DNA of 64,000 bases from Candidatus Woesebacteria bacterium (GCA_963716475.1 OY970314.1:564790-628789), one strand, 5' to 3'. Positions 3,185-36,425 are shown, counted from the stretch's first letter. Translations and numbers: made by a program. The notes: generated by a model from the letters alone, not told the origin.

Positions 3185-3202
3185 TATAATTTAGCTGTGG
3201 AG
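3185..3202 (+). promoter_or_regulatory. candidate -10 box (TATAAT at 3185..3190) and GGAG ribosome-binding site (3199..3202) for the plus-strand membrane-protein gene. The divergent intergenic region is only about 35 nt
   Basis: TATAAT is read directly in the 3177..3211 gap. GGAG lies 9 nt upstream of the ATG at 3212, which is the likely real start. The tracked ORF starts at GTG 3197. Confidence 0.25.
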
Positions 3203-5059
3203 AAAATACTAATGGGGGGAATCGTCGGATTTGTCCTTTTTACACTAATTTCCTACGTGCTAATAGTGCTTAATATTCCATTTCTTATCATCCCAATTAC
3301 ACTTTTGGCAATTATTGTAGGTGCCAAACCTCTGGTGAAAACACTAAAACAAATCAAAATTAAATTTGACGGATTAACCATCCTAACCATAATTGTTTTC
3401 ATTGTCGGAATCGCCGGACAAATGCTGGTCATCTCCCCCAGCGGAATTTTTAAAAACGGGGACTTGCTTTTTTGGTCTTCTAACGGACACGACGGAGCCT
3501 GGCATATAGCACTGATGGAGGAGATAAAGAAAGGTTACCCGTTTCAAAACCCGGTTTTTGCAGGTGAAAAGCTTGTTAATTATCATTTCTTTTCGGATAT
3601 TGCGCCTGCAATAATTTCTAAATACCTCCCCTTATCCGACTTGAATTTATATTTCAGAATATTCCCTTTTATTTACTCCCTTTTCTTCGGTGTGTCTGCA
3701 TACTACCTTACTAAGAAAATTACGGATAGCCGCACCGCCGGGATCTGGGCAACTATTTTTACATATTTTGCGGGAAGCTTTGGATACATAATCGGTAAAG
3801 GTGAAAGTGTCTTCTGGGCAACTCAACCGCAAAGTGCCAGTGGAAATCCACCCCAAATAGTTTCTGATTTTATTCTAATGGCAGCACTTTACTTTCTGTT
3901 AGCGATGTTACAGAAAAATGAACACAAATATACATTCTGGATTTGTGTTCTTCTAACCGGCACCTTGGCTGAATTTAAAGTCTATGCTGCAATTGTAATT
4001 CTGGGGTCTCTATTTCTTGCCGGAATTTGGCAAATGCTAAGGGAGAGAAAAATTCAAATACTTCTTTTGACAATTCTTAGCGGAGCCCTTGCTGCAATTT
4101 TATATTTACCAAATTCGAGCGGATCGGTTTCTTTTCTGATTTTTCAACCCTGGTGGTATATCAGGACTATGATTGTCGAGCCTTCCCGCCTGAATTTATT
4201 GGACTGGGAACTTCGACGCCAAACATATATTTATGAACACAACTGGAAACGGGTGATATTTCTGGAAGGATTAGGATTTCTGATTTTCTTCTTCGGAAAC
4301 CTGGGAATGAGATTCGTTGGGCTTTGGGATGGCTTTAAATTTGTAAAAAGTTCCCTCAAGAATTATTTCAATTTAATTTTCATTTTAATTATCTTTTCTT
4401 CTTTAGTACTTCCGCTCTTGTTCCTGCAGAAAGGTGTTGCCAGTAATACCAGTCAATTCCTTCAATATTTCGTCCTTCTTATCGGAATACTTGCCGGTAT
4501 ATCGGTAGCAAGACTTATAAAATTTGTTAAATTTCCCGTCTTCCAGATACTTATAGCTCTGATATTTATAGCTACGATGATTCCTACTCAAATCGGTCTA
4601 CTTCGCGATTTCTACGGATCTCCCGGACATTTACGTCAGGCTTTTGCTAAAATTTCGGCATCCGAGATTCAAGCGCTTGGCTACATTAAAAACAACACTT
4701 CTCCGAAAACGGTCATTTTGACGCCCCCATATGATCAGTATCCGGAAGTCGGAGGTCTTACCCCAAACGTTTGGAACTGGTCTGATACCGGTTACGTTTC
4801 AGCATTTTCATCCAGAAGGACATATTTTGACGACCACGAACAGGTAGATATCATGGGTTATGAATGGAAAGGACGTCTAACGATAAAAGAGAAGATATTT
4901 AAGGAGAAGGACCCGAATATCTTCAGCCGGGAGGTTAATGAAACTAAGTCACAAATTCTGTATTTTCCTAAAGTTTTCCGCCCGCTGGTGGATCTGACAA
5001 AAACAGGGTTGACTAAGATTTATGAAAACTCTGAGGTAGAAGTCTGGAAAATAAGTTAG
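3197..5059 (+). CDS. polytopic membrane protein with C-terminal extracytoplasmic domain. Putative GT-C glycosyltransferase of an unnamed family B (paralog of 6791..8440)
   Basis: 620 aa with many TM helices. It shares the motif HDGAWHIALMEEIKKGYPFQNPVFAGEKLVNYHF with RDGVWHEALIGQLKLGIPPQNPGFAGVALTNYHY in the 6791..8440 protein. It is the only plus-strand gene in the GT-C block. The probable true start is ATG 3212 (MGGIVGF) after GGAG. Confidence 0.6.
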   Translation: MEKILMGGIVGFVLFTLISYVLIVLNIPFLIIPITLLAIIVGAKPLVKTLKQIKIKFDGLTILTIIVFIVGIAGQMLVISPSGIFKNGDLLFWSSNGHDGAWHIALMEEIKKGYPFQNPVFAGEKLVNYHFFSDIAPAIISKYLPLSDLNLYFRIFPFIYSLFFGVSAYYLTKKITDSRTAGIWATIFTYFAGSFGYIIGKGESVFWATQPQSASGNPPQIVSDFILMAALYFLLAMLQKNEHKYTFWICVLLTGTLAEFKVYAAIVILGSLFLAGIWQMLRERKIQILLLTILSGALAAILYLPNSSGSVSFLIFQPWWYIRTMIVEPSRLNLLDWELRRQTYIYEHNWKRVIFLEGLGFLIFFFGNLGMRFVGLWDGFKFVKSSLKNYFNLIFILIIFSSLVLPLLFLQKGVASNTSQFLQYFVLLIGILAGISVARLIKFVKFPVFQILIALIFIATMIPTQIGLLRDFYGSPGHLRQAFAKISASEIQALGYIKNNTSPKTVILTPPYDQYPEVGGLTPNVWNWSDTGYVSAFSSRRTYFDDHEQVDIMGYEWKGRLTIKEKIFKEKDPNIFSREVNETKSQILYFPKVFRPLVDLTKTGLTKIYENSEVEVWKIS

Positions 5060-5624: not shown

Positions 5625-6791
5625 TTATGCCCCCTTAAAATTCTTGTACGTCATCACCAAACTTCCTGCTGCAAGTATCGAATGGAAAACAGCTATTATA
5701 TTATTGGGATCATAAACTTTCTGTATCACAGTAAACGGTGTAGGAAGCATATCGTACCATGTGCTAAATATCCTAAATAAAGAAATTGTCATAAACCTAT
5801 CTTGATAAAGAATGGGTATTGCAAAAGCTAGTATGCCAAAAAAGAATATCAGCCTGGAAAGGTTCGGTTTTTTTACTGATAAAATAACCAAAAAGGGAGC
5901 AATCCAAAGAAGCCACTGAATGTGAAATAGTGTGAAGGAAAAGATAATCAAAAATAATGTAACCCAATAATTAAAGACGTTCAATTTTTTATCGATAAGT
6001 ACTGCGTAAAAGAAAAGGATGGCGAGAGCCAAAGTTGTAAAATCAGACGTAAAAATGCCTGTGGTAAGCCCAGAAACCAGAGCTGATTGGAAAAAAGCCG
6101 TTGAGATAAACGGTAATACGATAACCCCAAAGATTATTATTGGAGTTGCGGCAAGAACGAATTTTTCCTTCACACTACGTCCCGACAAAAATAAAAATGG
6201 AACGAATAAAAGAGGATATAATTTAAATCCGGAAGCCAAACCGAGAATAAGCGAGGCGGAAAATAATTTTTGTTTTTTGATCATCAAAAATGCCAAGATC
6301 GTAAGTACTGCCGGAAAGATGTCTACGTTAGAAAATACATAAATCAGAACTATCGTGAAGGGGTTAAATAACCAAAATATATAAGCTTTTTTCTTATCTG
6401 CTTTGTTTTCAAAGAACTGCATTAGAAGAAACGCTACACCAATATCCAAAACCAAATACGGGAGCTTAAGCACAATAAGATACCTAAAGATATTCGGATT
6501 GTTAACAACAGAGTTGGCTCCGGCATCGGACAACCAAGATGTAAAGTTATTACCCAAAATCGGCGACACAATCCACTGATAGCCGCCTAAAGTAAAATAA
6601 GTCAAAGGAAAATAAACAAAATCATCTTTCAGCGGCAAAGATTTTTTATTATTAACCAGATAAGTGTAAATGTTAAAAACTCCCTTTTTCAGAAAAGATG
6701 CTTGATAATTGTAAGTTTTGATATCAGGGTGAAATAGAAACGCCGCCACCAAAACTCTTAAAAAAATTGCCAAAACCAGAAGTTTTTTCAT
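5625..6791 (-). CDS. polytopic membrane protein, DUF2029/GT87-like GT-C candidate (family C, paralog of 8437..9681)
   Basis: 388 aa. Shared block LKLPYLVLDIGVAFLL...FWLFNP...LILGLASGFKLYPLLF matches LKLPYLPFDIGTAFLL...FWIFNP...LLLGLGASFKIYPLLF in the paralog. Its start overlaps the upstream stop by 1 nt. Confidence 0.55.
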   Translation of the reverse strand: MKKLLVLAIFLRVLVAAFLFHPDIKTYNYQASFLKKGVFNIYTYLVNNKKSLPLKDDFVYFPLTYFTLGGYQWIVSPILGNNFTSWLSDAGANSVVNNPNIFRYLIVLKLPYLVLDIGVAFLLMQFFENKADKKKAYIFWLFNPFTIVLIYVFSNVDIFPAVLTILAFLMIKKQKLFSASLILGLASGFKLYPLLFVPFLFLSGRSVKEKFVLAATPIIIFGVIVLPFISTAFFQSALVSGLTTGIFTSDFTTLALAILFFYAVLIDKKLNVFNYWVTLFLIIFSFTLFHIQWLLWIAPFLVILSVKKPNLSRLIFFFGILAFAIPILYQDRFMTISLFRIFSTWYDMLPTPFTVIQKVYDPNNIIAVFHSILAAGSLVMTYKNFKGA

Positions 6792-8440
6792 TATTGTTCT
6801 ACCTCATATATGTTAACACTGTCATTTTCAAAAATCTTTTTCATGGAATACTCTCCCTCTGCCATTGGAAGCTGGTAAATCTTTGGTACATATACGTAAC
6901 GGATGTTATTACTCTTTAAAAACTGGTCGGACCAATTCAGATCTTTCTCGGTAAAAAAACGATCCGCCTCGTCAACCCTAACCGTATAATTTGTATTAAG
7001 AACAATCTGTTGTTCCGCATCCTCAATAAATACCGGCTTTCCTGAATATGCCGAAACATAGGCATTATCCGCATATACAAATAATGGGTATGGGTCGGTA
7101 TATTTATTTTTAAGGTTTGAGTCATAAGGGTGTTTTAAAATAACCCCGGGCGGTTCCAGTTTTAAAAAATTGAGCGCCTGATATTCCTTTAACGGTAAAT
7201 AAGCCGGCGGATTTGGGTAAAGTACGCTACGAAATGTGGCATATGAACTTATGGGAGTAATCAATAAAACTAAAACTAAAATAGGAATTGAAAACTTTGA
7301 CAACGCAAAAGCAGCATATAGACCCGTAAAATATAGAAAATAGTAAAAGAATTGAATAACATTCCAAGGGTTTCCTTTCTGGACAAAAAGAAGGGTGGGG
7401 AAGGTAGCAGCCCCCATCATCAGAAAGATAAAGAGATGAAGGTCAGACCTAAAAAACTTTTTACGAAGACCCCAGAGAGCGGTAATTCTTGTTCCCAAAT
7501 TTCCTACAAAAAATATTAATAAACTAATTAGCTCGATCGCACCGAAGCTTAACCACCTGTGTCCTCCAAAGTACGCAAAACGTCTTGCCGTAAAATTCGG
7601 AATGCCAACCCTATCCCCCGCATCTATCATTGTGTCAATTAACCAAAGCGGCTGAAATCCGATCAGACTTGCAGCGCCTTTCCCTATCGATAAATAAATA
7701 CCTATAAATATGACTGCCGAAAAAATGAAAACCGGCAACAAGGTATAATTTTTGTCAAAAAATATTTTCTTCAAAGTTAAGAAGAAGAGTGCGGCTATAA
7801 CTATCGCACCTGCATAAGCTTTAAACCCTACAAGTGCCCCCAATAAAACGGATAGCACCACTCCTTTAATCAGATTTGGTTTTTTAAGATAATTATCAAG
7901 AAGTATTACGCCAAATATTATTATCACCAGAGATATGGCATAAGGCGGATTGAGATTCATTGAAACCGGCTGGTTGGCCCAAAATGCCGATTCTCCGGCC
8001 AAAGGTTGGTGCTTAGCGAGACTTACTATCCAACCAAAACTACTTCCAAAATAGGCAAAAAATACCGCAAGTATACTTACCAGTTTACTGCCAAAAAGCC
8101 TTCGGGCGAGTAAATATGTCCCAATCCCTAAAAGAATCGAGAAAATTACCGGGAAAAACCGATATATGAGGAACGACGGGTTAATGGTAGATAATCTTGA
8201 AACAATTGCAACAAGTAAATCATAAAGATAGTGATAATTAGTAAGAGCCACTCCCGCAAACCCGGGGTTTTGTGGGGGAATACCTAATTTTAATTGACCG
8301 ATCAACGCTTCGTGCCAAACTCCATCCCGGGCCAATGGGCCAAAGTATCCGACACCATAATGATAAAGCTGGCCACTGCGAAACATGGCTACCCCCTGGA
8401 AAATTGTTCCCAAAATGGTTAAAACAATTAAAATAATCAT
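6791..8440 (-). CDS. family B polytopic membrane protein (paralog of 3197..5059), putative GT-C glycosyltransferase
   Basis: 549 aa. Shares the DGVWH...QNPGFAG motif and similar C-terminal soluble domain with 3197..5059. Confidence 0.6.
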   Translation of the reverse strand: MIILIVLTILGTIFQGVAMFRSGQLYHYGVGYFGPLARDGVWHEALIGQLKLGIPPQNPGFAGVALTNYHYLYDLLVAIVSRLSTINPSFLIYRFFPVIFSILLGIGTYLLARRLFGSKLVSILAVFFAYFGSSFGWIVSLAKHQPLAGESAFWANQPVSMNLNPPYAISLVIIIFGVILLDNYLKKPNLIKGVVLSVLLGALVGFKAYAGAIVIAALFFLTLKKIFFDKNYTLLPVFIFSAVIFIGIYLSIGKGAASLIGFQPLWLIDTMIDAGDRVGIPNFTARRFAYFGGHRWLSFGAIELISLLIFFVGNLGTRITALWGLRKKFFRSDLHLFIFLMMGAATFPTLLFVQKGNPWNVIQFFYYFLYFTGLYAAFALSKFSIPILVLVLLITPISSYATFRSVLYPNPPAYLPLKEYQALNFLKLEPPGVILKHPYDSNLKNKYTDPYPLFVYADNAYVSAYSGKPVFIEDAEQQIVLNTNYTVRVDEADRFFTEKDLNWSDQFLKSNNIRYVYVPKIYQLPMAEGEYSMKKIFENDSVNIYEVEQ

Positions 8441-9681
8441 ACCTGGTCAGTCCTTTTGGGGAAGTAATAATAAATATAAAAGGCAGCTACCGATACAAAA
8501 ACTGTCTGGAGAATGCTCCTCGCATAATTAATATCCACATTAATTCCTAAGCTTTGCCAAATACCAACCCGCCCGTAAAGTGAAGGAACTAAGGGTGAGA
8601 ACAGCCAGACGCTAAGACCCGGATCAAAAAAACTCACCTGACCAAGCCAAACAACCACTGCCAAAAGAGCCAGTGGCCAGTGTTTTAATTGTGATTTAAC
8701 TAAATCAATCACCAAAAACGGAGTCAACCAGGTAAACCATTGAGGATGAGTATGTGTAAAAATAAAGAATATGAGAATTACCACAAAAAATCTCTGCCAA
8801 AGATCACCAATCTTCGCTTTGTTGTAAAAGAAAACTATATATAAGAAAAGTATGAAAAGAGGGAAAAATATAATTGACTCCCCACCCGACACGGGAAGGG
8901 CCGCATAAAGACTTTTGGTTGTCTGTCCGGCGAGAAGAGCACTGCTCCTAAATCCGGAGGAGCCGATAAAGGGTAATATCCCGGCAACATAGGTTAACGC
9001 CCCGATTCCGACAATCTTTATGCGATCGGCCCACTTTTCCCTGAGAAGTGCAAGCGGAACCAAAAATAATAACGGATATATTTTAAAAGATGCTCCGAGA
9101 CCCAATAATAAAGAGGCAAAGAAATATTTTTCTTTCTTCACGGCAAGATAAAGTGCCGCAACCGTAATGAATGTAGGAATGATATCAAACTGTCCCATCA
9201 TGTAAGTTGCATATAAATTTACAGGATTAAATATCCAAAAAGTAAATGCCAGGAATTTATTTTTGGGGTTTTTAAAGAAATTAAAGAGTAAAAACGCGGT
9301 ACCTATATCAAACGGCAAATATGGAAGCTTGAGTGCCAGAAGAAGGAAGTTAAGCTGTAAATTCCCCAAGATCCCCGGCAAGTTAAAAATAAAATTATGA
9401 AGGATATCGCGGCTAAAAGGCAATGTTAACAAATGGGTTATCGGACCCAGGAAAAAATAAAATAAAGGCGGGTAGATAAAAAGATCCGTAGGATAAATCT
9501 TTAAGATCGGATCTGTTAGGGGAAGGTTTCTTAAATAATCATAGAAATTTAAGACATTGCCCTTGGCTATAACCTCGCCTGCATAATAGAATGCCTGGAT
9601 ATCCGAATGGAAGGTGGTAAAGGCCAAGAAGAAACGGACTAAAATTCCTATCACCAGAACTAAAATAATTTTTCTTTTCAT
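8437..9681 (-). CDS. family C DUF2029/GT87-like polytopic membrane protein (paralog of 5625..6791)
   Basis: 414 aa. See the shared motif block listed under 5625..6791. It has 4-nt ATGA overlaps on both sides. Confidence 0.55.
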   Translation of the reverse strand: MKRKIILVLVIGILVRFFLAFTTFHSDIQAFYYAGEVIAKGNVLNFYDYLRNLPLTDPILKIYPTDLFIYPPLFYFFLGPITHLLTLPFSRDILHNFIFNLPGILGNLQLNFLLLALKLPYLPFDIGTAFLLFNFFKNPKNKFLAFTFWIFNPVNLYATYMMGQFDIIPTFITVAALYLAVKKEKYFFASLLLGLGASFKIYPLLFLVPLALLREKWADRIKIVGIGALTYVAGILPFIGSSGFRSSALLAGQTTKSLYAALPVSGGESIIFFPLFILFLYIVFFYNKAKIGDLWQRFFVVILIFFIFTHTHPQWFTWLTPFLVIDLVKSQLKHWPLALLAVVVWLGQVSFFDPGLSVWLFSPLVPSLYGRVGIWQSLGINVDINYARSILQTVFVSVAAFYIYYYFPKRTDQV

Positions 9682-11246
9682 TTCTTTTTTCTAACAATAA
9701 TTGTAACGATAGCAAAAGCACTTAGCAAAGAAATTATATCGAATATTCCCCTAAACAATGTTTCTCTAAAGACAATCTTCACTTCGTGTTGACCTCCCGG
9801 TACGCTAAACTCTATCTGACCGTATGGTTTAGCAGCAGTAACCTGAACACTTTTGCCGTCAACCCAAGCCTGCCATCCCGGGAAATAGTATTTGTAATAA
9901 TCAAAAGTTGTGTCTTTTGTATAACTTACGTTGAAAATTGCATCCATCCCGGGATTTGGAGAAACTTTGTCGGGGCGTACCTCTGTGGCAACCGGAAGCC
10001 GGAGGTATTCTTCCTGCGTTTTTAAATATTCGGCGGATGCGGTGGGATAAGGAATATACCTATTTATATAATATTCATCGGTTCTACCCAAAAAATCCTG
10101 CGGTTTATAGTCAGTAAAATTAAGTGCAATTGCAGCGATTATTATAATAATACCGATGATTTTCCCAAATTTAATCTTGTCAAATACCAACACTAATATT
10201 GAAGTTGCAAACGTAGTTAAACTTAAAAATCTCCAAGGAAACTGAAAATAAGGCAAAAGAGGTACCAAATTCCAAATAAATGTTGATCTGTAATTCATCA
10301 TAAATACCGAGACACCAATCATCACAAGTGCCCAAGCCGTTACTTTATTTAATTTCTTGAAAAACACTATGGCAAGAATAATCAGGGCGATATTGACCGA
10401 TCCTAAAAAGAAACTCATGCCATCGTAAGGCCCGGGAACACTTGCTCCATAGCCAAAATACGGGGTAATCAGCTGTTTTAGTGTCGGAAAGTGATCAATA
10501 AAATTGAAAACAGTGTCATATTTCATCAATTTACTTTCGACAATTGCGGGCAGCCAAAAATACGAACTTAGCGTTAGACCCAAGGCAAATCCGTAAATCG
10601 ACCGCGCTATACCTTTCCACTGCCAAACGGCAAGGAGTACCAAAAACGGAACAAACATATAAGCCATAATGTTGTGTGACAATATGAGTCCGGCCGTTCC
10701 AATTGCCAGAAGTCCTATCCATTTAATTGATTTACCTTTACCAATTTTTGTAATTGCATAGGCAGCCATCGGTGGAAAAATAAATGCCAAGATTTCACCA
10801 ATAGAACCCCTGACATAAATATCGGTCGCCCGGTACGGTGTATAGATATACAAAACCGCGCCGGCAAGAGCTAGAATTCCCCCTGAGTGCTCTCTTAAAA
10901 ATTTGTACATCAGGTACATTGAAAAAGGCACACTCATAAAAAATACAGCCTTAATACAATCGACAAAGTTTAAACCCAACTTATGAAAAATTTCCCCGAT
11001 ATAGAAAGGCAGCGGAAAAACAAAATTAAAAAGCGGATAACCGAAACCAAAACTCAGATCCGGAACAAATCTCGGGGGAAACATACTCAAGCTTAATGTT
11101 CTATTCATTTCGTAAAGCCAGCCGATGTGTAAATCATCACTGGCACCATAAAAGCCATGAACAAAAAGTGCCCAAACCGCGGGAATGGTCAGCACAAGAG
11201 CTATCAAGAATGAATATTTATTTACGAATTTTTCAACTTTTTCCAT
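9678..11246 (-). CDS. YfhO-like polytopic membrane protein (GT-C candidate, family D, copy 1 of 3)
   Basis: 522 aa. N-terminal loop motif ASDDLHIGWLYEM...RFVPDLSFGFGYPLFNF. The C-terminal beta-rich domain ends with GGQHEVKIVF. Copies 2 and 3 have the same architecture. Confidence 0.5.
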   Translation of the reverse strand: MEKVEKFVNKYSFLIALVLTIPAVWALFVHGFYGASDDLHIGWLYEMNRTLSLSMFPPRFVPDLSFGFGYPLFNFVFPLPFYIGEIFHKLGLNFVDCIKAVFFMSVPFSMYLMYKFLREHSGGILALAGAVLYIYTPYRATDIYVRGSIGEILAFIFPPMAAYAITKIGKGKSIKWIGLLAIGTAGLILSHNIMAYMFVPFLVLLAVWQWKGIARSIYGFALGLTLSSYFWLPAIVESKLMKYDTVFNFIDHFPTLKQLITPYFGYGASVPGPYDGMSFFLGSVNIALIILAIVFFKKLNKVTAWALVMIGVSVFMMNYRSTFIWNLVPLLPYFQFPWRFLSLTTFATSILVLVFDKIKFGKIIGIIIIIAAIALNFTDYKPQDFLGRTDEYYINRYIPYPTASAEYLKTQEEYLRLPVATEVRPDKVSPNPGMDAIFNVSYTKDTTFDYYKYYFPGWQAWVDGKSVQVTAAKPYGQIEFSVPGGQHEVKIVFRETLFRGIFDIISLLSAFAIVTIIVRKKK

Positions 11247-12877
11247 AAATAGATTACTAGCAAGAATCCAAAAAGGCTTCCGGCAGACAAAATGTTTGCA
11301 AAAGTTCTTATGGTTGTGTTTTCAAACTCCCCTTTGACATGATACTCTCCTTTTCCCAGATTAATCTCAATCCTTCCCAAAACATTGTTATGAGAGTGAG
11401 AAAATACTTTATCGTTAACAATAACGGTCCAGTTCGGAAAATCGAAAACCGGGACAACTATACTTGAATCCTGTGTAACATTGACATCAAATTCCCATCG
11501 GTCTGACTTATTGACAAAGTTTGTTATAACTCCCGTACCCTGGGCAAAAAACGGAGATGCCGGAGCCGGTTCTCTCGGTTCCAACGCAGTTTTCGGCAAA
11601 TAATCCAAAAGAGCACCGGCCTGCTGATCGATAAAACTTTGCCCTGAAAGTAGCTCCTGATCTGTCAAATTATAATAAAAGTGCTCCGGTCTAAAGTACT
11701 GCCAATTTAAAAGAATCGCCAAAAAAATGATAATAGCTGCAATGATTGGTACCCATTTATCTTTCATTAATGAGACAAAATACGCACCAATCAGACTACC
11801 TGAGAAAATTACGATAGATAAAAACCGCCACGGAAATTGAACATAGGCCAGAATCTTTATAAATTCCCAAATCGGTGCAGATTTGTTATGCGTCATCAAT
11901 AGTGCCAATGCGAACATGGAAAGTAACAATACAAAAAGCGATATATTCTTCCTTTTTTTAGTAATTAATACCCAAATAATGGACACAACTACCAGCCACC
12001 AAAGCGGCCAACCTATTTGATAAGAAAGGGTAATCCGGGATTGAGGTTGAGATCCTGTGTAGTTCCAGGATCTGTCAATAAATAGCTGCGATACTTTGAC
12101 AAACTGAGCCCTGAAGTCTAATTCCGCCCGAGTTAGGGCTTCTGTTTGTACCAAACCCTTTTCGAAAAACGCCGGAAGTGTGAAAAATGCCGCAATTCCA
12201 AAAGCTAACCCAAAACATAACAGAGAAATTTTTAAACCCTTCCATTTTTCTATATACAGCCAATATAATACCCAAACAATAATTAACGGTGTAAAGATTA
12301 GTATCATAATATTGTGCGACACAAAGAATATGAAAGTCGAAATTGTAGCCAAGGCAAAATACTTTTTGTCTCTTATTTTTATCAAACGCAAGTAGAAGAA
12401 AAAGACAAAAGGAATAATAGCAAGCGCAAAACTCTCCCCCACTGCACCCCTAACGTATGAATCTAATGCTCTATACGGAGCAAAAAGAAAAAGAATAGCC
12501 CCCACAAGTCCTGGGGCTTTCCCAAAAAGATCTTTGGCCAAAAAATACATTCCGACTGCTCCAAAAACCAATGGCAAGAAAAACAGAAATTTAGCAGCAC
12601 CAATATAACCCAATACAAAACTGGCAACCGCTCCTACATAGTAGGCAACGGGGCCGTAGAAATTGAAAAGCGGATAACCGTTACCATAGCCCATGTCGGG
12701 AACCCACCTGCAGGGGATTTGTAAATCGGTAAAACATTTCCTCATTTCAAAAATGCGTATTACCTGAAGATTATCTTGATGAGAAAAATATCCCGGAATA
12801 AAAAGCGGCCATATAACCAAGCCGGATAGAGCAAAAATGAATATTAAAGGCCAATTATTTAGAAAGAACTTTTTCAT
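11222..12877 (-). CDS. YfhO-like polytopic membrane protein, family D copy 2
   Basis: 551 aa. Motif HQDNLQVIRIFEM...IPCRWVPDMGYGNGYPLFNFY. The C-terminus ends with GKGEYHVKGEF. Confidence 0.5.
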   Translation of the reverse strand: MKKFFLNNWPLIFIFALSGLVIWPLFIPGYFSHQDNLQVIRIFEMRKCFTDLQIPCRWVPDMGYGNGYPLFNFYGPVAYYVGAVASFVLGYIGAAKFLFFLPLVFGAVGMYFLAKDLFGKAPGLVGAILFLFAPYRALDSYVRGAVGESFALAIIPFVFFFYLRLIKIRDKKYFALATISTFIFFVSHNIMILIFTPLIIVWVLYWLYIEKWKGLKISLLCFGLAFGIAAFFTLPAFFEKGLVQTEALTRAELDFRAQFVKVSQLFIDRSWNYTGSQPQSRITLSYQIGWPLWWLVVVSIIWVLITKKRKNISLFVLLLSMFALALLMTHNKSAPIWEFIKILAYVQFPWRFLSIVIFSGSLIGAYFVSLMKDKWVPIIAAIIIFLAILLNWQYFRPEHFYYNLTDQELLSGQSFIDQQAGALLDYLPKTALEPREPAPASPFFAQGTGVITNFVNKSDRWEFDVNVTQDSSIVVPVFDFPNWTVIVNDKVFSHSHNNVLGRIEINLGKGEYHVKGEFENTTIRTFANILSAGSLFGFLLVIYLWKKLKNS

Positions 12878-14573
12878 TCTGTTTTAACTTTAACGCTAAA
12901 TAAATAATAACTCCAAAGCTTACCAATGTAATAATGTTTCCGATCCTCCTGTCCAATGTGTCGGTTAGTTTTGCTTCTACCATATGTTGACCTACCGATA
13001 AATTAAATGTGATTAGGCCTAAACAATATCTCTCACCGATACAGTCGTTATTTACATGAGGAACGACCTTGCCATCAACCTTGACCTCCATTCCCGGAAA
13101 ATCAAAAAGGGGAAGACGAACTAGAGAATCATTTGAAACCTCAACTACACCAGTTTGAAAATCACTCCCCTTTTTGTATTCCAAAAACTTAACGTTTCCT
13201 TTTAAAACTTCAGGTAAGTCAGGAGCTTTCGAATATGGAGGAAGTGTTGCGTAAATCGGTAAGTAGTCAAAAATGCTGATCGTAAGCTGCTTTTCCCACG
13301 AATCACCGGAAAATTTATCAGCATCAGTAATATTCAGCCACGTCTTGGGAACAAAATAATTAATGGTTAACGCAAAAGAGGCTGATACTAAAATTATTCC
13401 TAATAAATATTTATACTTTCCGGCTAAATAAACCAGAAGCCCGGTAAGTAAACAAAGTAAAAATATTGATACCGCCAAAAACCTCCAAGGAAATTGCATA
13501 TACCATAATATCGGAAGGTGTGCCCAGATAAAACTCGACTTCATATGAATCATAAAGATGCTGGCAAGAGTTACTCCGACTAAACCTAAAATCAAAAGTG
13601 AGATTTTTTTGTATTTTTTGAATCCAATAAGGGCTATAACCGGTGCAATAATTAGACCGGAAATCCACTGGACCATCCCGAGTGACAAATTAAGTTTTTC
13701 ATTTGGAAATCCGGATGAGCCATATCCCCATTCCCTTGAAATAAATAGTTTATACAAACTCACGAAATGCTGACGGTAATCAAAATATCCTGACAAAAGA
13801 CCTTCAGTATGGGTAAACTGCCTCTCCAAAAGAACCGGTAAAACAAAAAAGGCTGAAAGCCCGAATCCTAAAATTCCCCCCCAGACAATTTTCATCAGGT
13901 TCTTCCACTTATTTTGGTAAAGCCAGAATGCTGCCCAAAGGACTGCAACCGGTACAAAAATCATGGTCATTAGTACATGCGTCGTCATGAGGAGGAAAAT
14001 AGAAATGCACATCCATATTAGATACTTTGTTTTACCTGTTTTAATTAATTTATATATCGCCCAAAGGATTAGGGGAAAGAATATTTGTGCCCAAAACTCA
14101 CTCAAAGCACCCCGCACATAAACCTCTACTGCTTTATAGGGAATATAAGTATAGATAAGCGCAGCAACAAGACCTGCCCATTTATCATTCGAAATACTCC
14201 TGACAAGAATATATATAGTTACTGCGGAGAGGATATATCCCAAAATAAAGAGGATTTTTACAGTATCAATATATTGGAAACCAATCCTGTGCAAACCCGC
14301 TCCAAGATAATATGGCAGGGGCGGGTAGAAATTAAACTGCGGATAACCGTACTGATATCCCGCATCCGGCACCCACCTGCAGGGAATTTGAAGATCGGTG
14401 TAACATTTATCCATTTCATAAACCCTGAAGGCCTGCAAATCATCCTGCATCGGGAAAAAACCGGATTTAAAAAGCTTTGAATAAGTCGGGATTGTCAATA
14501 TGACCAAAGCAAAAATAGGTATTAGCCGCCTCCACCAATTGCCGGATTTAGATATTATTTTAAGCATATCCAT
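12855..14573 (-). CDS. YfhO-like polytopic membrane protein, family D copy 3
   Basis: 572 aa. Motif MQDDLQAFRVYEM...IPCRWVPDAGYQYGYPQFNFY. The C-terminus ends with VGQHMVEAKL. Confidence 0.5.
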   Translation of the reverse strand: MDMLKIISKSGNWWRRLIPIFALVILTIPTYSKLFKSGFFPMQDDLQAFRVYEMDKCYTDLQIPCRWVPDAGYQYGYPQFNFYPPLPYYLGAGLHRIGFQYIDTVKILFILGYILSAVTIYILVRSISNDKWAGLVAALIYTYIPYKAVEVYVRGALSEFWAQIFFPLILWAIYKLIKTGKTKYLIWMCISIFLLMTTHVLMTMIFVPVAVLWAAFWLYQNKWKNLMKIVWGGILGFGLSAFFVLPVLLERQFTHTEGLLSGYFDYRQHFVSLYKLFISREWGYGSSGFPNEKLNLSLGMVQWISGLIIAPVIALIGFKKYKKISLLILGLVGVTLASIFMIHMKSSFIWAHLPILWYMQFPWRFLAVSIFLLCLLTGLLVYLAGKYKYLLGIILVSASFALTINYFVPKTWLNITDADKFSGDSWEKQLTISIFDYLPIYATLPPYSKAPDLPEVLKGNVKFLEYKKGSDFQTGVVEVSNDSLVRLPLFDFPGMEVKVDGKVVPHVNNDCIGERYCLGLITFNLSVGQHMVEAKLTDTLDRRIGNIITLVSFGVIIYLALKLKQNEKVLSK

Positions 14574-14576: not shown

Positions 14577-15473
14577 TTAAAATCTGGAAAATATTGCCTC
14601 ATCAGAAATCTTAGCTTCTTTCATCTCTTTACTTCTTTCCCTGATAATAACGTCAACCCTTCCTAGGGCCATTAAAACTACCCTTATATATCCGGGGTGT
14701 TTAGCTAATCTTTTAACCAGACCGACCACGTGCTTTCTGAAAAGATTCGTACTTGTAAGGTCTTTCCAGATAAAAAGAAGCTGATTCCGTTCCAATATTC
14801 TCTGAACATATTTCTTGGGAAAACCGCTTATAGTAGCTTCATGCATGTGCGCAACTTTTGCATCGGGGTCCCAAATAAGTTTATACCCTCTTTTAAGAGC
14901 GCGATAACATAAATCAACATCTTCCCAATAAAAAGGCGATAAAAGTTTTTCATCCATTCCGGTTAGTTCCATCCAAATACTTCTTCTAAAAACCCCACTA
15001 CCCCCACTGACCCAAAAAGTATCATGCGGGGTTGGTGTTTTTGGACCGGTAGAATGCCCAACGAATCCGTCAATAAAGAATCCTCGTGCCCATCCGAGAT
15101 CTCCAATTTCATTTAAGGAAACTGCAAAAACCTTTGGTTCTTGGAAATGTGAAAAAACAGATTCCAAAAAATTGTTTTCCGGCATCACATCAGAATTAAG
15201 AAGACATATCAAATCCCCTTTTGCAGCTCTGACTCCCGTATTTACAGTCGCTGAAAAACCTCTATTTATTTTATGTTTGACTAGCTTTATTTCGGGGAAC
15301 TTTGAAGTAATCATCTTCACACTGTTGTCCCGTGATCCGTCATCTACAACAATAATTTCTTCCATGCAGTTTCCCGGATTACCTTTTGCCAGAAAAAGTG
15401 ACGGCAAATTTTTTTCCAATAATTTTTCGCCATTGAAGTTTGGGATAATCACCGAAACTGTAAAATTATTCAT
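14577..15473 (-). CDS. family 2 glycosyltransferase (GT-A fold)
   Basis: Motifs VSVIIPNFNGEKLL, VVDDGSRDNS and LLNSDV (DxD-type) are present. Confidence 0.8.
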   Translation of the reverse strand: MNNFTVSVIIPNFNGEKLLEKNLPSLFLAKGNPGNCMEEIIVVDDGSRDNSVKMITSKFPEIKLVKHKINRGFSATVNTGVRAAKGDLICLLNSDVMPENNFLESVFSHFQEPKVFAVSLNEIGDLGWARGFFIDGFVGHSTGPKTPTPHDTFWVSGGSGVFRRSIWMELTGMDEKLLSPFYWEDVDLCYRALKRGYKLIWDPDAKVAHMHEATISGFPKKYVQRILERNQLLFIWKDLTSTNLFRKHVVGLVKRLAKHPGYIRVVLMALGRVDVIIRERSKEMKEAKISDEAIFSRF

Positions 15474-18797: not shown

Positions 18798-20285
18798 TTA
18801 GGGAGTCCTATTTAGAAGTGTATTTAGGCTCCTTTTAATATCGGCCACCAGGGATAACCCCATCATGGACAGCATCGAAGCAGCATAAATAATTATTCCC
18901 GCGGCGGCAAGAATCATCATTGAGTTTAAACTAACGGGCAAGAACCTCTTCGCAATAATTAGAATTACACCCATAACAAGGGCCCCGATTGCCGGCTTTA
19001 CCATCGAGTCGGTAAGAGAAAAGTTAACATATTTTTTGGCAATAAATATTGCTACTACAGATGAAGCCCCGACTAATGAATAACCGATCGAGGCACCGAT
19101 TACACTAAACTTAAGTGCCAAAACCGGAATAAAAGCCCATGTCAGCACTGTCCACATAATCATCAGATAAAAAGTAATTCTAATTTTACCGATAGCATTC
19201 AACAAGTTTGTTAGTTGAGTAGTTGCAGCAGCAAAAGTAAAGTTTATCGAAACAAAAATAATTGGAATTAGAGCCGGGATCCATTGGTTGTATCTTGGTA
19301 TAATACGAACAAGGATGGGGGCCAAAACCGAAATACCAACCAAGCTTGGAAATACTAGAAGACAGATAAAAAATATTGATCTTGTCACGCTTCTTTCAAG
19401 ATGATCCGGGGCGTCCTGCATTCTGGAAAATGCCGGAAAAGTCACGCGTGTAACCGTATCCATGAAAAAGGTAAGCGGAAATCTGGCTATCTTTTGAGCA
19501 AAGGAAAGTACCCCTACCCCAATTGGCCCTAAAATACCTCCCAAGACGAGAGTCATCCCGTCATCCTTAAAAGTTGCCAGGAAAGTGTTTATTTGGTAGG
19601 GAATCCCGAATTTGAAAAGCCCTGACAGTGTTTTCCTGGAAAAAGCAAGGCCTGGCTTCCAGGGTTGAAGAATATAAATTGTGATAAGTCCTACTACTCC
19701 GCGGGTAAGTACCGCAAATGTAAAACTTTTTAGTCCGAATCCCTTCATAGCAAAAACAACCAGGACAACGTTATAAACCACCTGTTCCAGAATTTGAGGA
19801 AAAGCCAGCTTTACAAATTCGAGTTTCCGTTCCAAAAGCACCGAAGGTATACTTTTTAAAGAGGAGAAAAGCAGCGATGCCGCAAGAGCATACAAAAGTA
19901 TTTGACCATTATGATCAAGAGAATATTTTTGAGAAAAAAACGGAGTCAAGACAACAACAACGGCAATAATGGAAAGCACCAAGACCTGTTGAACGACAAA
20001 GGTTGTTTTTAAGTCCGTTTCTGTGGGTATTTCCTTCTTTTGAATCAGTGCTGCAGCCAAGCCAATATCCGAAAAATAAACAAGAAAATTTATAATTGCA
20101 CTGACAATTGCAAAAACCCCGAATTCATACTTACCCAAGTATGCAAATAAGAAAAGTTGGGCAACAAGTGCAATTACCTGCAGAAGAAAAGTGCGTCCGG
20201 TTAAAATGACAACCCCTCGTACCGAGCGTGCTTTTACGGTTTCCAAAGAAATTTCGCCGGTTGGGTCCATGTGTTCACCTTCCAT
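18798..20285 (-). CDS. Wzx-type oligosaccharide/polysaccharide flippase (MOP superfamily)
   Basis: 495 aa with about 12-14 TM helices. The N-terminal region has the pattern typical of Polysacc_synt proteins (GVVILTGRTFLLQVIALVAQLFLFAYLGKYEFGVFAIV). Confidence 0.75.
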   Translation of the reverse strand: MEGEHMDPTGEISLETVKARSVRGVVILTGRTFLLQVIALVAQLFLFAYLGKYEFGVFAIVSAIINFLVYFSDIGLAAALIQKKEIPTETDLKTTFVVQQVLVLSIIAVVVVLTPFFSQKYSLDHNGQILLYALAASLLFSSLKSIPSVLLERKLEFVKLAFPQILEQVVYNVVLVVFAMKGFGLKSFTFAVLTRGVVGLITIYILQPWKPGLAFSRKTLSGLFKFGIPYQINTFLATFKDDGMTLVLGGILGPIGVGVLSFAQKIARFPLTFFMDTVTRVTFPAFSRMQDAPDHLERSVTRSIFFICLLVFPSLVGISVLAPILVRIIPRYNQWIPALIPIIFVSINFTFAAATTQLTNLLNAIGKIRITFYLMIMWTVLTWAFIPVLALKFSVIGASIGYSLVGASSVVAIFIAKKYVNFSLTDSMVKPAIGALVMGVILIIAKRFLPVSLNSMMILAAAGIIIYAASMLSMMGLSLVADIKRSLNTLLNRTP

Positions 20286-21844
20286 TAGTTTACTTCAAAG
20301 AATAACAGTGCATCCTGCGGACCTTCCTGTTGATATTCTGTTGTTCCCGGAAGACGGGGTTCTTTGGGATATGACTCAATAAGTGTAAGGTTCAGTTTGG
20401 CCGGATCCGCTACTAAACGTGATTTATTGACAATAAAATAGGTCAAATTTCCGGAGAGTTTTGATTCAACCAATGGCTGTGGAACTTTGCTTATTGCCAG
20501 GCCTGTTCCGACTACTATGGTATTTGGCAAGTCCTGAACGTACATAGTAAAACCGTCAGGAAGAGTCCCAAAATATCCTTCGGTACCTACCACAATTTTC
20601 TTCCCGGGATTTTCAATGCGTACATTTCTAACATAATCAGCCGCTTCTTTTATCCCGATTCCCGATGTCCATTCCTGAAAATACCCCATTCGCTCGCGAC
20701 TGGGAAAATTAGCTTTCTCCGGATTTGTTACCAAAAACCAATCAAATATTCCGGCTTGGACTATAAATACTATAAAGGCCAAAACTGTTACATATTTCCA
20801 TTTTCCTGCCAAACCGGCAAAAGCTCCGGCAGCAAATACATAAAGAGGCGGAACCAAAAATAGAATATATCTTAATGTAAAACTTTTAGTATACTCGGCC
20901 TCGAACAGGAGTGGTGCCAAAAACCAAGCTCCGAGTATCAGAATGTATTTTCTATACTTTTTGAAATTTATTATTATTCCGATAGCTGCCAAAAGCATTA
21001 GACCAAAAGGCCCCATTGCCGTTAACCAACTGAGCGTGGTCGGAAGATTGTAACGGATGGGATCCGTCGGATTGGTCAAAATTCTTGAAAGCGGGAATAC
21101 ATAATCCCCGGTACGGGAAGAAAGAAGACTGAAATTCGGCCCCAGTCTCTGAATGTTATACATTCCAAATGCAATAAAATAAATTACCATTAAAAGCCCT
21201 GCGTATTTTAATATATTTTTCGGCTTTTTAAGTAGAATTACGGCCACGGGTATAAGAGCAGCGAAAAAAAGCGCCGGTGATTTGGTTAAAGACGCCAGGC
21301 CCAAGCTAAAACCCGTGATCATGGCCAGATCGAGACGTAAAGAATCGGCGGTAATGAGACTTAAGTAAAGTGTCCATATACCCAAGCAGGTCAGAAGTGA
21401 ATCGACAAGAGCCATCCTGTCAAAAAAGAGAGATAGAGGTGAGAGTGCCCAGAGGATTGAGGCGAAAAGCGCAGCCAATTTTGACTTAAAAATATAGTAA
21501 GTCAAAAGGAACAAGCCGATCATACTCCCAATTCCTGAGACGGCAGAAAGTAGTCTGCCTGCAAAAAGCGGGTCCGAAAGCCTTTTGACATAAAACATCA
21601 GGATCCACATAAAAAGAGGCTGTTTACCGTCAGATAGCGGCAAAAATCTTAACGTGGGTTCCGAAACCATAATTTGACTCCAACGTATGTATATGGCCTC
21701 ATCCGCAAACACCGGAATAATAGTCAGGTGAAAAAGCCTAAGTGCAAATCCGGCAAGAAGAATCCCCAATCCGGCCAGAACAACCCACCCCCACCCTTTC
21801 CAAAATTTCTGCATTCCTTCCGATATTATCTCACACCCTCCCAA
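20285..21844 (-). CDS. GT39/ArnT-like polytopic membrane glycosyltransferase
   Basis: First-loop motif IPVFADEAIYIRWSQ is the DE motif of ArnT/Pmt enzymes. 519 aa with a C-terminal soluble domain. An alternative start is MQKFWKG at about 21814. Confidence 0.75.
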   Translation of the reverse strand: MGGCEIISEGMQKFWKGWGWVVLAGLGILLAGFALRLFHLTIIPVFADEAIYIRWSQIMVSEPTLRFLPLSDGKQPLFMWILMFYVKRLSDPLFAGRLLSAVSGIGSMIGLFLLTYYIFKSKLAALFASILWALSPLSLFFDRMALVDSLLTCLGIWTLYLSLITADSLRLDLAMITGFSLGLASLTKSPALFFAALIPVAVILLKKPKNILKYAGLLMVIYFIAFGMYNIQRLGPNFSLLSSRTGDYVFPLSRILTNPTDPIRYNLPTTLSWLTAMGPFGLMLLAAIGIIINFKKYRKYILILGAWFLAPLLFEAEYTKSFTLRYILFLVPPLYVFAAGAFAGLAGKWKYVTVLAFIVFIVQAGIFDWFLVTNPEKANFPSRERMGYFQEWTSGIGIKEAADYVRNVRIENPGKKIVVGTEGYFGTLPDGFTMYVQDLPNTIVVGTGLAISKVPQPLVESKLSGNLTYFIVNKSRLVADPAKLNLTLIESYPKEPRLPGTTEYQQEGPQDALLFFEVN

Positions 21845-23229
21845 AGCAAGCCAACCCCATCAAAATCCCTTATAGCTTCAATTCCCTTGTATCCGGGAGG
21901 CACAACGATCGTAAAAATTTGCCTTTGATTTTTCAGAGGAGGCAAATCCGGCGTGGCACCGTAATAATTGAATAAAAACGGGTAACCAAATCCGTAACCA
22001 GGTTGAACACTCAGGGAGACTCCGTACCCCGATTTTCCGCCCATTTGAATAATCGTTTGAACGGCTTGCTCTTTTGCCCAAAGGTTCATCGGTTTTACGT
22101 GTATTTTCCAGGCTGCAATGTTAATAAATATCAGAAAAATAATAACTGCCAGAGTTACCACATCATATTTTTTGATTTTCTCAAAAACATAGCCGGATAA
22201 AATTATAAATGACGGAAGGGCTGACATTAAATAGTATTCCGAAAAATTAGATCTGTAAAAAAGGAAGAAAATGAAAGGGACAAAAAGAAAAAGCAGCGAG
22301 AGGGCCAACACCTTTCTATATTTAATTTCTTTCACTATTCCGACTACACAAGCTAAAATTGTTGCGACGAATATAACAATACGAAAAGCCACCGGGAAAA
22401 ACATGTAATAAAAACTGGCTGAGTTCGAGATTAAAGTCATAATAATCTTGCTTATGGGCGGGGCCAGCCCTGTTATAACAAGTCTAAATACTGAAAATAG
22501 TCTTCCAAAATTCACGAAACTGTGGGTCACATCAAAGACAATACTCGTTAGAAAACCTACAATCACTATCAATAGGGAGTAAAAAATCCATTTCCCGTCA
22601 AACTTAGGCTTAAACATTAACCAGTAGACAAGGGCTGCCGGAGGAAGAAGAAAAATCGCAAAATGTGCCTGAAATCCAATAACAAACCCCAAAAATGAAA
22701 CAAAAATCCCAAAAGGTTCTTTATCTGATATATAAACCCCATAAATAACCAAAAGTTCGGCAATATAAAAAAGCGATGGGGCCCAGGGACTTTGATCCCA
22801 AGTTATTAATGTTAAGGAAATGGTACTGAGGAGACTAAGTATCAGAGCGGTTTTTTCTGAATAGAACTTCCGGGTGAAGAAATATATCAAAAAAATAAAA
22901 CCTGCTCCCAAAAATACTGAGGTATAAGCACCGGCAATCGGATTACCGTTTGTGAAAATTGCGGATAGTCCCCAAAGATAGGTAAACCCCGGACCTATCG
23001 AATATCCTCCGAGACTTGTTTTTGGCCCTAAAAGTACCGGATGTCCTGATAAAAGATCTTTTGCCCTACCCGCAATTTCTTCCTGGTCCGCATCAAATGG
23101 AGTTCTTGTCTCTAATTTGTAAAGGCGCAAGAAAAGCGCAAGGAGGACTACCAAAATGATAGGTACAAATTTCACCAATTTATGAAGAAGTCGATTTAGA
23201 TTTGGGTTCCCCATGTCCGCCTCCGTCAA
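21826..23229 (-). CDS. ArnT-like GT-C polytopic membrane glycosyltransferase
   Basis: 467 aa. N-terminal pattern LRLYKLETRTPFDADQEEIAGRAKDLLSGHP. TM topology like the neighbouring GT39 paralogs. Confidence 0.65.
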   Translation of the reverse strand: MTEADMGNPNLNRLLHKLVKFVPIILVVLLALFLRLYKLETRTPFDADQEEIAGRAKDLLSGHPVLLGPKTSLGGYSIGPGFTYLWGLSAIFTNGNPIAGAYTSVFLGAGFIFLIYFFTRKFYSEKTALILSLLSTISLTLITWDQSPWAPSLFYIAELLVIYGVYISDKEPFGIFVSFLGFVIGFQAHFAIFLLPPAALVYWLMFKPKFDGKWIFYSLLIVIVGFLTSIVFDVTHSFVNFGRLFSVFRLVITGLAPPISKIIMTLISNSASFYYMFFPVAFRIVIFVATILACVVGIVKEIKYRKVLALSLLFLFVPFIFFLFYRSNFSEYYLMSALPSFIILSGYVFEKIKKYDVVTLAVIIFLIFINIAAWKIHVKPMNLWAKEQAVQTIIQMGGKSGYGVSLSVQPGYGFGYPFLFNYYGATPDLPPLKNQRQIFTIVVPPGYKGIEAIRDFDGVGLLWEGVR

Positions 23230-28432: not shown

Positions 28433-28639
28433 ATGAGTACGGAAGCACCGCGTCACTGGAGGCTAAATCAACAAAGATATAATCTCGTCGGAGAAATGTG
28501 CCCGCACTGCGAAACTAAAATGTTCCCGCCGAGAGAAATTTGTAATAGTTGTGGAGAACCGATAAAAGGGGTTGGAGAAGAAGTGCAAACCGGTATCAGG
28601 ATTTCTTTGCCCACGGAAGTTTCCACGTCTTCCAAATAA
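28433..28639 (+). CDS. small zinc-ribbon protein (CPHC...CNSC), DUF35-like N-terminal ribbon without an OB domain
   Basis: 68 aa with motif CPHCETKMFPPREICNSCG. Its 3' end overlaps the convergent GT2-GtrA gene by about 44 nt. Confidence 0.4.
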   Translation: MSTEAPRHWRLNQQRYNLVGEMCPHCETKMFPPREICNSCGEPIKGVGEEVQTGIRISLPTEVSTSSK

Positions 28640-36417: not shown

Positions 36418-36425
36418 TATTTATA

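Follow-up and report, generated by a model that had tools for sequence, protein, structure and literature searches.

The window analysed here, a stretch of 64,000 nucleotides (nt) from Candidatus Woesebacteria bacterium (GCA_963716475.1, OY970314.1:564790-628789), a groundwater bacterium with a tiny genome, contains three tandem genes for membrane proteins, which we name by gene order on the minus strand: paralog C comes first, B second and A third. We think it likely that A, B and C are three non-redundant, catalytically intact glycosyltransferases (GTs) of the GT-C type, belonging to the Pfam family PF10131, which depend on lipid-linked sugars and act on the extracytoplasmic side of the membrane to decorate a rhamnose-containing surface glycan. 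This reading builds on the paralogy of the three genes, the fold of their products, a pattern of conservation consistent with topology, synteny across genomes and the content of the surrounding operon. The three genes are as follows.

12855-14573, minus strand: paralog C, a GT-C-fold protein of 572 amino acids (aa) with 12 transmembrane (TM) helices, PF10131 score 30.2 bits.
11222-12877, minus strand: paralog B, 551 aa, PF10131 score 54.8 bits, with an AlphaFold2 model.
9678-11246, minus strand: paralog A, 522 aa, below every Pfam cut-off, with an AlphaFold2 model of the same fold as B.

A preliminary description of the window had placed three back-to-back paralogs at 9678-14573, and open reading frames (ORFs) lie at exactly these limits; the overlaps measure 23 nt between C and B, 25 nt between B and A and 4 nt between A and the gene that follows. 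The proteins are 31–36% identical in pairwise end-to-end alignment (31–32% for A against the other two) and tblastn between paralogs gives E = 1e-52 to 1e-99, values which exclude a chance match and make A, B and C true paralogs. No clear Shine-Dalgarno sequence was found upstream of the three starts. The recorded B protein (P0001, 490 aa) starts at Met62, and so is without TM1, the invariant Asp and the PCRWVPD segment described below (61 codons, 12695-12877), while a Logan assembly calls the full 551-aa protein (P0391). The longer N-terminus is conserved in more than 100 orthologs, which supports the long start of B; the short start is very likely a mis-call.

Pfam assigns B and C to PF10131 (PTPS_related, a 6-pyruvoyl-tetrahydropterin synthase-related membrane domain), both scoring above the gathering threshold of 26.4 bits. 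A falls below it at 21.1 bits, as do most A orthologs, and joins the family only as a clear paralog with the same fold. Public annotations of close homologs carry the PTPS_related name, and an NCBIfam scan returned no family for A, B or C. Other members of the wider superfamily are matched more faintly: YfhO (PF09586) by C alone, at 18.9 bits against a gathering threshold of 28.5, and PMT_2 (ArnT-like, GT39/GT83) by A alone, at 16.9 bits against a cut-off of 26.1. Across 73 orthologs and paralogs (E ≤ 0.01), PF10131 is matched by 60, PMT_2 by 27, YfhO by 10, STT3 by 4 and DUF6541 by 3. The label "YfhO-like" in the preliminary description therefore has to be withdrawn, and we rejected membership of that family on the sub-threshold score. 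Its second proposal, an uncharacterised GT-C clade, holds as regards the fold and the lack of any characterised member, but the clade is not an unrecognised one, because PF10131 is already listed in the Pfam GT-C clan (CL0111) as of "function unknown" (PMC7801869); none of the three proteins hit a non-glycosyltransferase family. A, B and C are thus members of a known, catalogued and uncharacterised GT-C family, a remote relative of PMT_2/ArnT, STT3 and YfhO, and represent no new kind of enzyme or mechanism. The PF10131 model begins at about residue 71–80 of these proteins, and therefore TM1, the invariant Asp and the PxRxVPD segment lie outside it.

The assignment of the trio to the GT-C fold (GT-C_A-like) is solid at the level of predicted structure. 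AlphaFold2 models built from deep alignments reach pLDDT 92.5 and pTM 0.92 for B, and pLDDT 88.5 and pTM 0.91 for A, and every Foldseek match of either model in the PDB with E ≤ 0.1 is a GT-C protein (STT3, AftD, ArnT, AglB, PglB, ALG12, Pmt4, Emb, AftA and AftB). The best match is STT3 for B (E 1.3e-5) and AftD for A (E 6.4e-4), the AftD alignment spanning ~430 columns at a root-mean-square deviation of 5.7–6.1 Å. In a profile comparison with hhalign, the family profile aligns with the window's own PMT_2 protein (24975-26489) over TM2–TM7 at 93.9% probability.

The prominence of STT3 raises the question of whether these are oligosaccharyltransferases of the STT3/PglB/AglB type, which transfer a glycan en bloc from lipid pyrophosphate to Asn. 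We regard this as highly improbable: the Pfam STT3 match is seen in B only, where it reaches 17.8 bits and stays under the 24.5-bit cut-off, and where a large C-terminal soluble domain would be expected the trio has a beta-sandwich of ~125 residues, flanked by the last two TM helices and with the terminal one behind it. The few STT3 matches among the 73 relatives and a Wzx flippase within the operon speak for such a role, but the best match of A, AftD, is a polysaccharide arabinofuranosyltransferase, and the WWD(Y/W)G motif is absent from A, B and C, on which ground N-oligosaccharyltransferase activity was rejected.

Secondary structure from the AlphaFold2 models together with hydropathy gives 12 TM helices with both termini inside, within the range of 8–13 TM helices found in GT-C enzymes. 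This model, with its N-terminus inside, satisfies the positive-inside rule at every loop, Lys and Arg being enriched in each short cytoplasmic loop, and it places all conserved polar residues on the outer face. In the outside loops EL1b, EL2, EL3 and EL5, 27–40% of the columns are universally conserved, as against 0–6% in the TM helices and 4% in the beta-sandwich. In the B model, TM1 is a helix at residues 9–26 and the next helix occupies 38–50. The C-terminal beta-rich domain noted in the preliminary description is present as a beta-sandwich in both models, with eight strands at residues 443–518 in B and six strands of at least three residues at 435–493 in A, followed by one last TM helix.

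11318-11695, minus strand: B linker and 8-stranded beta-sandwich (residues 395–520), extracytoplasmic, between TM11 and the terminal TM12.
9759-10109, minus strand: the equivalent linker and beta-sandwich of A (residues ~380–496), from the AlphaFold2 model.
12954-13352, minus strand: the equivalent domain of C (residues ~408–540), placed by alignment.

This domain is the most variable part of the family. In C it carries an extra Cys-x6-Cys insertion (NNDCIGERYCLG), also conserved in the relative P0122, and in B it has weak Foldseek matches to beta-sandwich modules of glycoside hydrolases (ranks 36, 44 and 48). Some Daviesbacteria-like arrays contain shortened members (~385–400 aa) after the A-type copy (L015 12508-13656, L016 11217-12425, L025 12531-13691 and L026 11208-12413); these match the family profile at ~5–248 and ~425–544 only, keeping the first seven TM helices and the beta-sandwich and lacking TM8–TM11.

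The strongest pointer to catalysis is found in the first outside loop, where the three proteins share a short motif immediately after TM1 and a second conserved segment behind it; a further, nearly invariant motif lies at the outer end of TM10.

14412-14444, minus strand: C motif D44-D-L-Q-A-F-R-V-Y-E-M54; D44, where the juxtamembrane helix starts, is the proposed catalytic Asp.
12743-12775, minus strand: B motif D35-N-L-Q-V-I-R-I-F-E-M45; D35 is the proposed catalytic Asp.
11106-11138, minus strand: A motif D37-D-L-H-I-G-W-L-Y-E-M47; D37 is the proposed catalytic Asp.
14325-14384, minus strand: C residues 64–83, PCRWVPD...GYPQFNFY, the same loop segment as B 55–74.
12656-12715, minus strand: B residues 55–74, PCRWVPD...GYPLFNFY, second half of the first outside loop.
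11019-11078, minus strand: A residues 57–76, PPRFVPD...GYPLFNFV, the same loop segment as B 55–74, with no Cys pair.
11822-11839, minus strand: QFPWRF motif of B (residues 347–352), at the outer end of TM10.
10227-10244 (A) and 13479-13496 (C), minus strand: equivalents of QFPWRF.

All three proteins therefore carry the x-D-D-L-x(5)-E-M motif of the preliminary description, with the correction that B reads D-N and not D-D. The same source gave the following segments as IPCRWVPD and GYPxFNFY, which is right for B and C; A has FPPRFVPD and GYPLFNFV, so that GYPxFNF is what all three have in common. We followed conservation in 137 aligned homologs, in 142 domains from 50%-identity cluster representatives and in 201 copies from 79 species-representative genomes; counts per position are given below for the 201 copies in B numbering, the remainder being gaps. 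The motifs recur in nearly all of B's 120 closest homologs, and also in the cluster-representative domains and the 201 copies. The first Asp (D35) is Asp in 198 of 198 non-gap copies and in 139 of the 142 cluster-representative domains. The second position is D in 174 copies, E in 7, L in 7, N in 5 and Y in 4, and the Glu of E-M (position 44) is E in 137 and Q in 56, with Q in the majority among C orthologs; since either E or Q occurs there, this Glu is not an essential acid. Within the first loop of B, P55, R57, D61, G67, P69 and F71 are invariant. Near-universal residues include R57 (198 copies), D61 (192), K96 (194), R143 (198), E148 (198), H188 (200), E239 (E in 194, D in 6), Q347 (197), W350 (197) and R351 (198), and A, B and C all retain the full universal set. 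Two loop 1 cysteines of B, C48 and C56, are both present in 145 copies and both absent from 56, and neither ever occurs singly, the B and C types having the pair and the A type being without it; this perfect co-occurrence fits an extracytoplasmic disulfide, which is probable from the sequences.

What the preliminary description had taken for a catalytic acidic pair is accordingly reduced to one residue: the first Asp is invariant and sits just after TM1, but the second position and the Glu vary, and we rejected "D-D...E" as a catalytic acidic set in favour of a single invariant Asp at the start of an amphipathic helix. In GT-C enzymes a DXD or modified (DDX, DEX) motif, with hydrophobic residues behind it, lies in an extracytoplasmic loop that is usually the first (PMC5836110), and in GT-C structures that have been solved the Asp proposed as catalytic follows TM1 (PMC11127046). 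The trio conforms to this pattern, the invariant Asp lying 8–9 residues after TM1 and opening D-D-L (A, C) or D-N-L (B) ahead of hydrophobic residues, and G-D-E or A-D-E stands at the equivalent place in the PMT_2 proteins of the window. By this analogy the invariant Asp (B D35, A D37, C D44) is most likely the catalytic residue.

A reaction scheme can be proposed on the same basis. A cytoplasmic GT2 enzyme would load a monosaccharide onto polyprenyl phosphate, and a GtrA-fused or Wzx-type protein of the same gene island would flip this lipid-sugar across the membrane. In the outer leaflet, the GT-C enzyme would hold the lipid phosphate through the basic residues K96, R57, R143, H188 and R351 (B numbering), while the invariant Asp after TM1 would activate an acceptor hydroxyl for inverting transfer of the sugar, the acceptor being held by the beta-sandwich and the flexible TM7–TM8 loop. 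The acceptor would be a rhamnose-containing cell-wall glycopolymer made by the operon's own rmlABCD, rhamnosyltransferase-like GT2, GT4, methyltransferase and Wzx genes, with A, B and C each supplying a different sugar or linkage from their fixed C-B-A cassette.

That cassette is widespread. Clusters at 50% identity that match the family profile number 16,596, and for 5,098 the match reaches E ≤ 1e-30; A and B have orthologs of their own down to ~52% identity in Woesebacteria, Daviesbacteria and other Patescibacteria. A relative that is ~70% identical (L001) keeps the whole gene order, with one-to-one orthologs at 74% (C), 68% (B) and 71% (A) identity. Among 79 species-representative loci, three tandem copies occur in 37, four in 11, two in 12 and one in 19, some of the single- and two-copy loci being cut by contig ends. 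The first array position is held by the C type in 36 of the 37 three-copy loci, the second by the B type in 31 and the third by the A type in 32, and all 11 four-copy loci show the same succession, with a fourth type after A, found chiefly in Daviesbacteria and in arrays closely related to theirs; the C type accounts for 17 of the 19 single copies. The C-B-A order recurs across Woese-, Davies-, Collier- and other genomes of the Microgenomates group, so that the trio is an ancient, fixed cassette. Its age and fixed order argue for non-redundant roles. The preliminary description had read the triplication as a diversification of specificity; the event proves to be old and not local, and diversified specificity among A, B and C is plausible but weakly supported, as few positions distinguish the types (see below). 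Arrays syntenic with, and 50–55% identical to, the Microgenomates loci also occur in metagenome-assembled genome records titled "uncultured Gammaproteobacteria bacterium ... binchicken" (L007, L010, L011, L013 and many others), in which the organism names look like placeholders or mislabels.

A strictly conserved order could also reflect obligatory assembly, with A, B and C as subunits of one hetero-oligomeric GT-C complex in the manner of EmbA-EmbB or Pmt1-Pmt2, both of which exist as complexes in the PDB. The overlapping reading frames suggest translational coupling, and some gene calls join two copies in one polypeptide (P0121, P0123). We nevertheless judge this quite unlikely, because the single-copy (mostly C-type) and two-copy loci, even with some of them truncated at contig ends, indicate that an enzyme can work without partners, and because all three proteins retain the full set of catalytic-site residues and none looks like a degenerate scaffold. 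More tentatively, and with some doubt, the trio and the fourth type of Daviesbacteria might form an ancient, Microgenomates-wide extracytoplasmic glycan assembly line made up entirely of PF10131 enzymes, possibly as a hetero-oligomer; in some lineages, fusion to a cytoplasmic rhamnosyltransferase-like GT2 would let a single polypeptide work on either side of the membrane.

Our preferred reading, of three intact enzymes with separate roles on a rhamnose-containing glycan, takes its substrate from the genomic context. The trio belongs to a long minus-strand string of genes, a ~30-kb operon. In order of transcription it begins with rmlA, rmlB, rmlC and rmlD, three rhamnosyltransferase-like GT2 genes (one of them double) and a GT2-GtrA fusion; after a plus-strand interruption come an ArnC-like GT2, a PMT_2 GT-C protein, a DHH phosphoesterase, a PgfS-like GT2, a multi-TM protein, a PMT GT-C protein and Wzx; and it ends with two GT2 genes, a GT4, a methyltransferase, a further GT2, then C, B and A, and finally a GT87-like protein, a multi-TM protein and another GT87-like protein. 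The genes that bear on the pathway are these.

33960-37160, minus strand: rmlD, rmlC, rmlB and rmlA, the complete dTDP-L-rhamnose pathway, at the head of the island.
30384-33950, minus strand: three rhamnosyltransferase-like GT2 genes.
28596-29903, minus strand: GT2 with a fused membrane domain of the GtrA type, a candidate for both lipid-sugar synthase and flippase.
27232-28392, plus strand: the sole plus-strand gene of the island, 35 bits against a cut-off of 150 for [quoted passage not shown].
26471-27187, minus strand: GT2 nearest ArnC, PgfS and PpgS, below curated cut-offs, a candidate donor synthase.
23243-24043, minus strand: GT2 and candidate donor synthase, nearest polyprenyl-phosphate-sugar synthases (PgfS, dolichyl-phosphate hexose transferase) with scores under the curated cut-offs.
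18798-20285, minus strand: Wzx-type flippase (Polysacc_synt_3, 2.6e-52).
14577-15473, minus strand: soluble GT2 lying 3 nt upstream of C; L001 has a syntenic ortholog at 64% identity.

The complete rmlABCD set followed by three rhamnosyltransferase-like GT2 genes indicates a rhamnose-based surface glycan, and by analogy a rhamnose-containing glycopolymer of this operon is most likely the acceptor. The donor would be a polyprenyl-phosphate sugar on the extracytoplasmic face, in keeping with a context of three lipid-sugar-synthase-like GT2 proteins, the GtrA fusion and Wzx. Relatives provide a further connection: in several (the cluster representatives P0122, P0132, P0135, P0149 and P0189, and the genomic loci L006 5515-8001, L043 5452-7950, L044 5632-8001, L045 5575-8013 and L054 7008-9635), the C-type protein carries at its N-terminus a fused GT2 of ~265 aa that is soluble and rhamnosyltransferase-like, an arrangement that links the family with this glycan pathway and confirms that the N-terminus is cytoplasmic. 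The equivalent of the fused GT2 is a separate gene overlapping the C ortholog in L001, and is absent from this position in the window. The double-GT2 fusion of the window (590 aa, 30384-32156) consists of halves that match two separate GT2 genes of L001.

Several points weigh against the reading we prefer. Similarity to solved GT-C enzymes is moderate, with query-normalised TM-scores of ~0.31–0.48 and 12–15% identity in Foldseek, and sequence searches of the PDB with a single protein, a 3-sequence profile and a 137-sequence profile found nothing relevant, so that it is fold comparison alone that ties the trio to solved structures. The alignment with PMT_2 from hhalign covers nothing before residue 55 and does not reach the Asp motif, so the correspondence with the "DE" motif of PMT/ArnT is one of position only; likewise, topology and the place of the motif are our grounds for equating D35 with the catalytic Asp of ArnT, PglB or AftD. 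All three candidate lipid-sugar synthases score far below NCBIfam equivalog cut-offs. The GT2 adjoining C (14577-15473) and the GT2 fused to C-type proteins in relatives are soluble and MftF/rhamnosyltransferase-like, not lipid-sugar synthases of the CsbB/GtrB type; the CsbB/GtrB-type partner with C-terminal TM helices that would be expected beside a YfhO protein (PMC5836110) was not found, the candidate lipid-sugar synthases lying 9–15 kb away. A region-wise search returned only 16 scattered positions conserved within types yet differing between them, and with so few a functional difference is invisible in the sequence, and divergence in donor as opposed to acceptor cannot be argued. Literature searches returned no functional study of PF10131 or of Microgenomates GT-C enzymes, and the donor, the acceptor, the chemistry and the catalytic role of the Asp are all argued from analogy only.

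The context also allows for a different acceptor. A, B and C might glycosylate proteins, each transferring a single sugar from polyprenyl phosphate to Ser/Thr-rich surface, S-layer or pilus proteins in the manner of PMT or Pgf enzymes; in streptococci such Ser/Thr-rich regions are glycosylated (PMC12041528), and the two island candidates for lipid-sugar synthesis nearest PgfS resemble a component of the streptococcal protein-glycosylation system. The kinship with PMT_2 described above (the hhalign match and the weak matches in 27 of 73 members) and the appearance of Pmt4 and Pmt1-Pmt2 among the Foldseek matches point the same way. We hold this acceptor to be unlikely, and favour a glycopolymer over protein because the operon is of the polysaccharide type: rmlABCD, rhamnosyltransferase-like GT2 proteins, a GT4, a methyltransferase and Wzx are the usual make-up of a polysaccharide pathway. 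The acceptor-binding MIR or TPR domains of PMT/TMTC enzymes are missing as well, the trio having only its small beta-sandwich, and no obvious Ser/Thr-rich target gene was seen adjoining the trio, although none was specifically looked for.

Comparison with characterised systems places the decoration of a rhamnose glycan by A, B and C among known themes while setting the trio apart from each of them. YfhO, which acts with CsbB and GtcA in the three-component teichoic-acid glycosylation of Firmicutes, resembles the trio in its predicted GT-C fold, in its numerous TM helices, the last two of which enclose the main extracellular domain (13 TM in YfhO (PMC5836110), 12 in the trio), in the weak Pfam matches of C and 10 of 73 members, which include the C-terminal region, and in the expected use of lipid-phosphate sugar outside the membrane (PMC8035078). 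It differs in an extracellular domain of 389 residues as against ~125, in its CsbB-type GT2 with C-terminal TM helices where the trio's neighbouring GT2 is soluble and rhamnosyltransferase-like, and in that no catalytic residue could be predicted for YfhO (PMC5836110), whereas the trio has a clear invariant Asp after TM1.

The ArnT, PMT_2 and PMT enzymes (GT83/GT39-type GT-C_A) share with the trio an Asp-acid pair after TM1 followed by an amphipathic helix (GDE... and ADE... in the window's PMT_2 proteins), a profile match over TM2–TM7, and a place for ArnT and Pmt4 among its structural matches. A conserved Lys at the outer start of TM2 in the trio may resemble the phosphate-binding Lys of ArnT. 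The later motifs of the trio are different (PY-R..YVRG..GE, SHN and QFPWRF), PMT_2 scores remain sub-threshold, and the trio has an additional beta-sandwich and terminal TM helix.

The arrangement of the genes recalls mycobacterial embC-embA-embB, three tandem paralogous GT-C arabinosyltransferases. These too form a tandem GT-C trio, whose members take lipid-phosphate sugars as donors and act on a cell-wall polysaccharide outside the membrane, as A, B and C would, and Emb structures are among the Foldseek matches, weakly (E 0.02–0.1); the Emb C-terminal domain is reportedly a carbohydrate-binding module. Emb proteins are about twice as long (1030–1090 residues), have no detectable sequence similarity to the trio, belong to another phylum and presumably handle another sugar.

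Multi-component transmembrane glycosylation systems are known (PMC8035078), and in streptococci several GT-A/GT-C pairs each add a distinct side-chain sugar outside the cell from an undecaprenyl-phosphate sugar (PMC8035078, PMC11754754); SccN/SccM and SccP/SccQ, for example, add distinct glucose side chains to streptococcal polyrhamnose (PMC11754754). The window resembles these rhamnose-polysaccharide side-chain systems (GacI/GacL; SccN/SccM, SccP/SccQ) in combining a rhamnose pathway and rhamnosyltransferases (rmlABCD) with three lipid-sugar-synthase-like GT2 genes and about ten GT-C-like genes. It has far more GT-C genes, and the streptococcal GT-C enzymes are of the PMT_2 type or have no Pfam domain, and are not PF10131 proteins (PMC8035078, Table 2).

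PF10131 is a very large family with no characterised member, and its Pfam model omits the segment that most likely holds the catalytic Asp. New here are a topology model with an outward-facing set of residues for mutagenesis (D35, R57, D61, K96, R143, E148, H188, E239 and R351 in B numbering), and the observation that the Microgenomates group has three or four paralog types arranged as a fixed C-B-A(-D) cassette, with recurrent GT2 fusions. The rhamnose-linked glycan operon takes up ~3% of a ~1-Mb genome, and these results are useful for annotating the envelopes of candidate-phyla-radiation bacteria. Should the more tentative assembly line prove real, identifying its product would assign a first function to a family that numbers more than 16,000 sequence clusters, and would define for the first time a cell-wall glycopolymer of a candidate-phyla-radiation bacterium.

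The wider island is itself rich in membrane glycosylation genes, with about ten GT-C-like genes in ~28 kb (1539-29903): three PF10131, three PMT/PMT_2, two GT87-like and two to three without a family. For a reduced genome (largest contig ~0.98 Mb), this is an unusually heavy commitment to glycosylation outside the cytoplasm. Two multi-TM proteins at 6791-8440 (minus strand, 549 aa) and 3197-5059 (plus strand, 620 aa) have no Pfam or NCBIfam match and appear to be paralogous, since the L001 ortholog of each matches the other window gene at 29–31% identity, with synteny kept in L001; a "D-G-x-W-H" motif follows the first hydrophobic helix of each (RDGVWHEAL and HDGAWHIAL), and they may be a further, unrecognised family of membrane glycosyltransferases or polymerases. 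A 467-aa multi-TM protein without a family match (21826-23229, minus strand), between the PgfS-like GT2 and the PMT gene, has "FDADQEE" after its first TM helix and, judged from its sequence, looks like another divergent GT-C enzyme. Past the sugar-nucleotide genes, at 38886-43647 on the minus strand, lie genes for a CAP-domain protein (38886-39824), a Lamin-tail-domain protein (41241-42353) and a PcsB-like/peptidase_C39_2 protein (42454-43647), whose products are possibly secreted or wall-associated.

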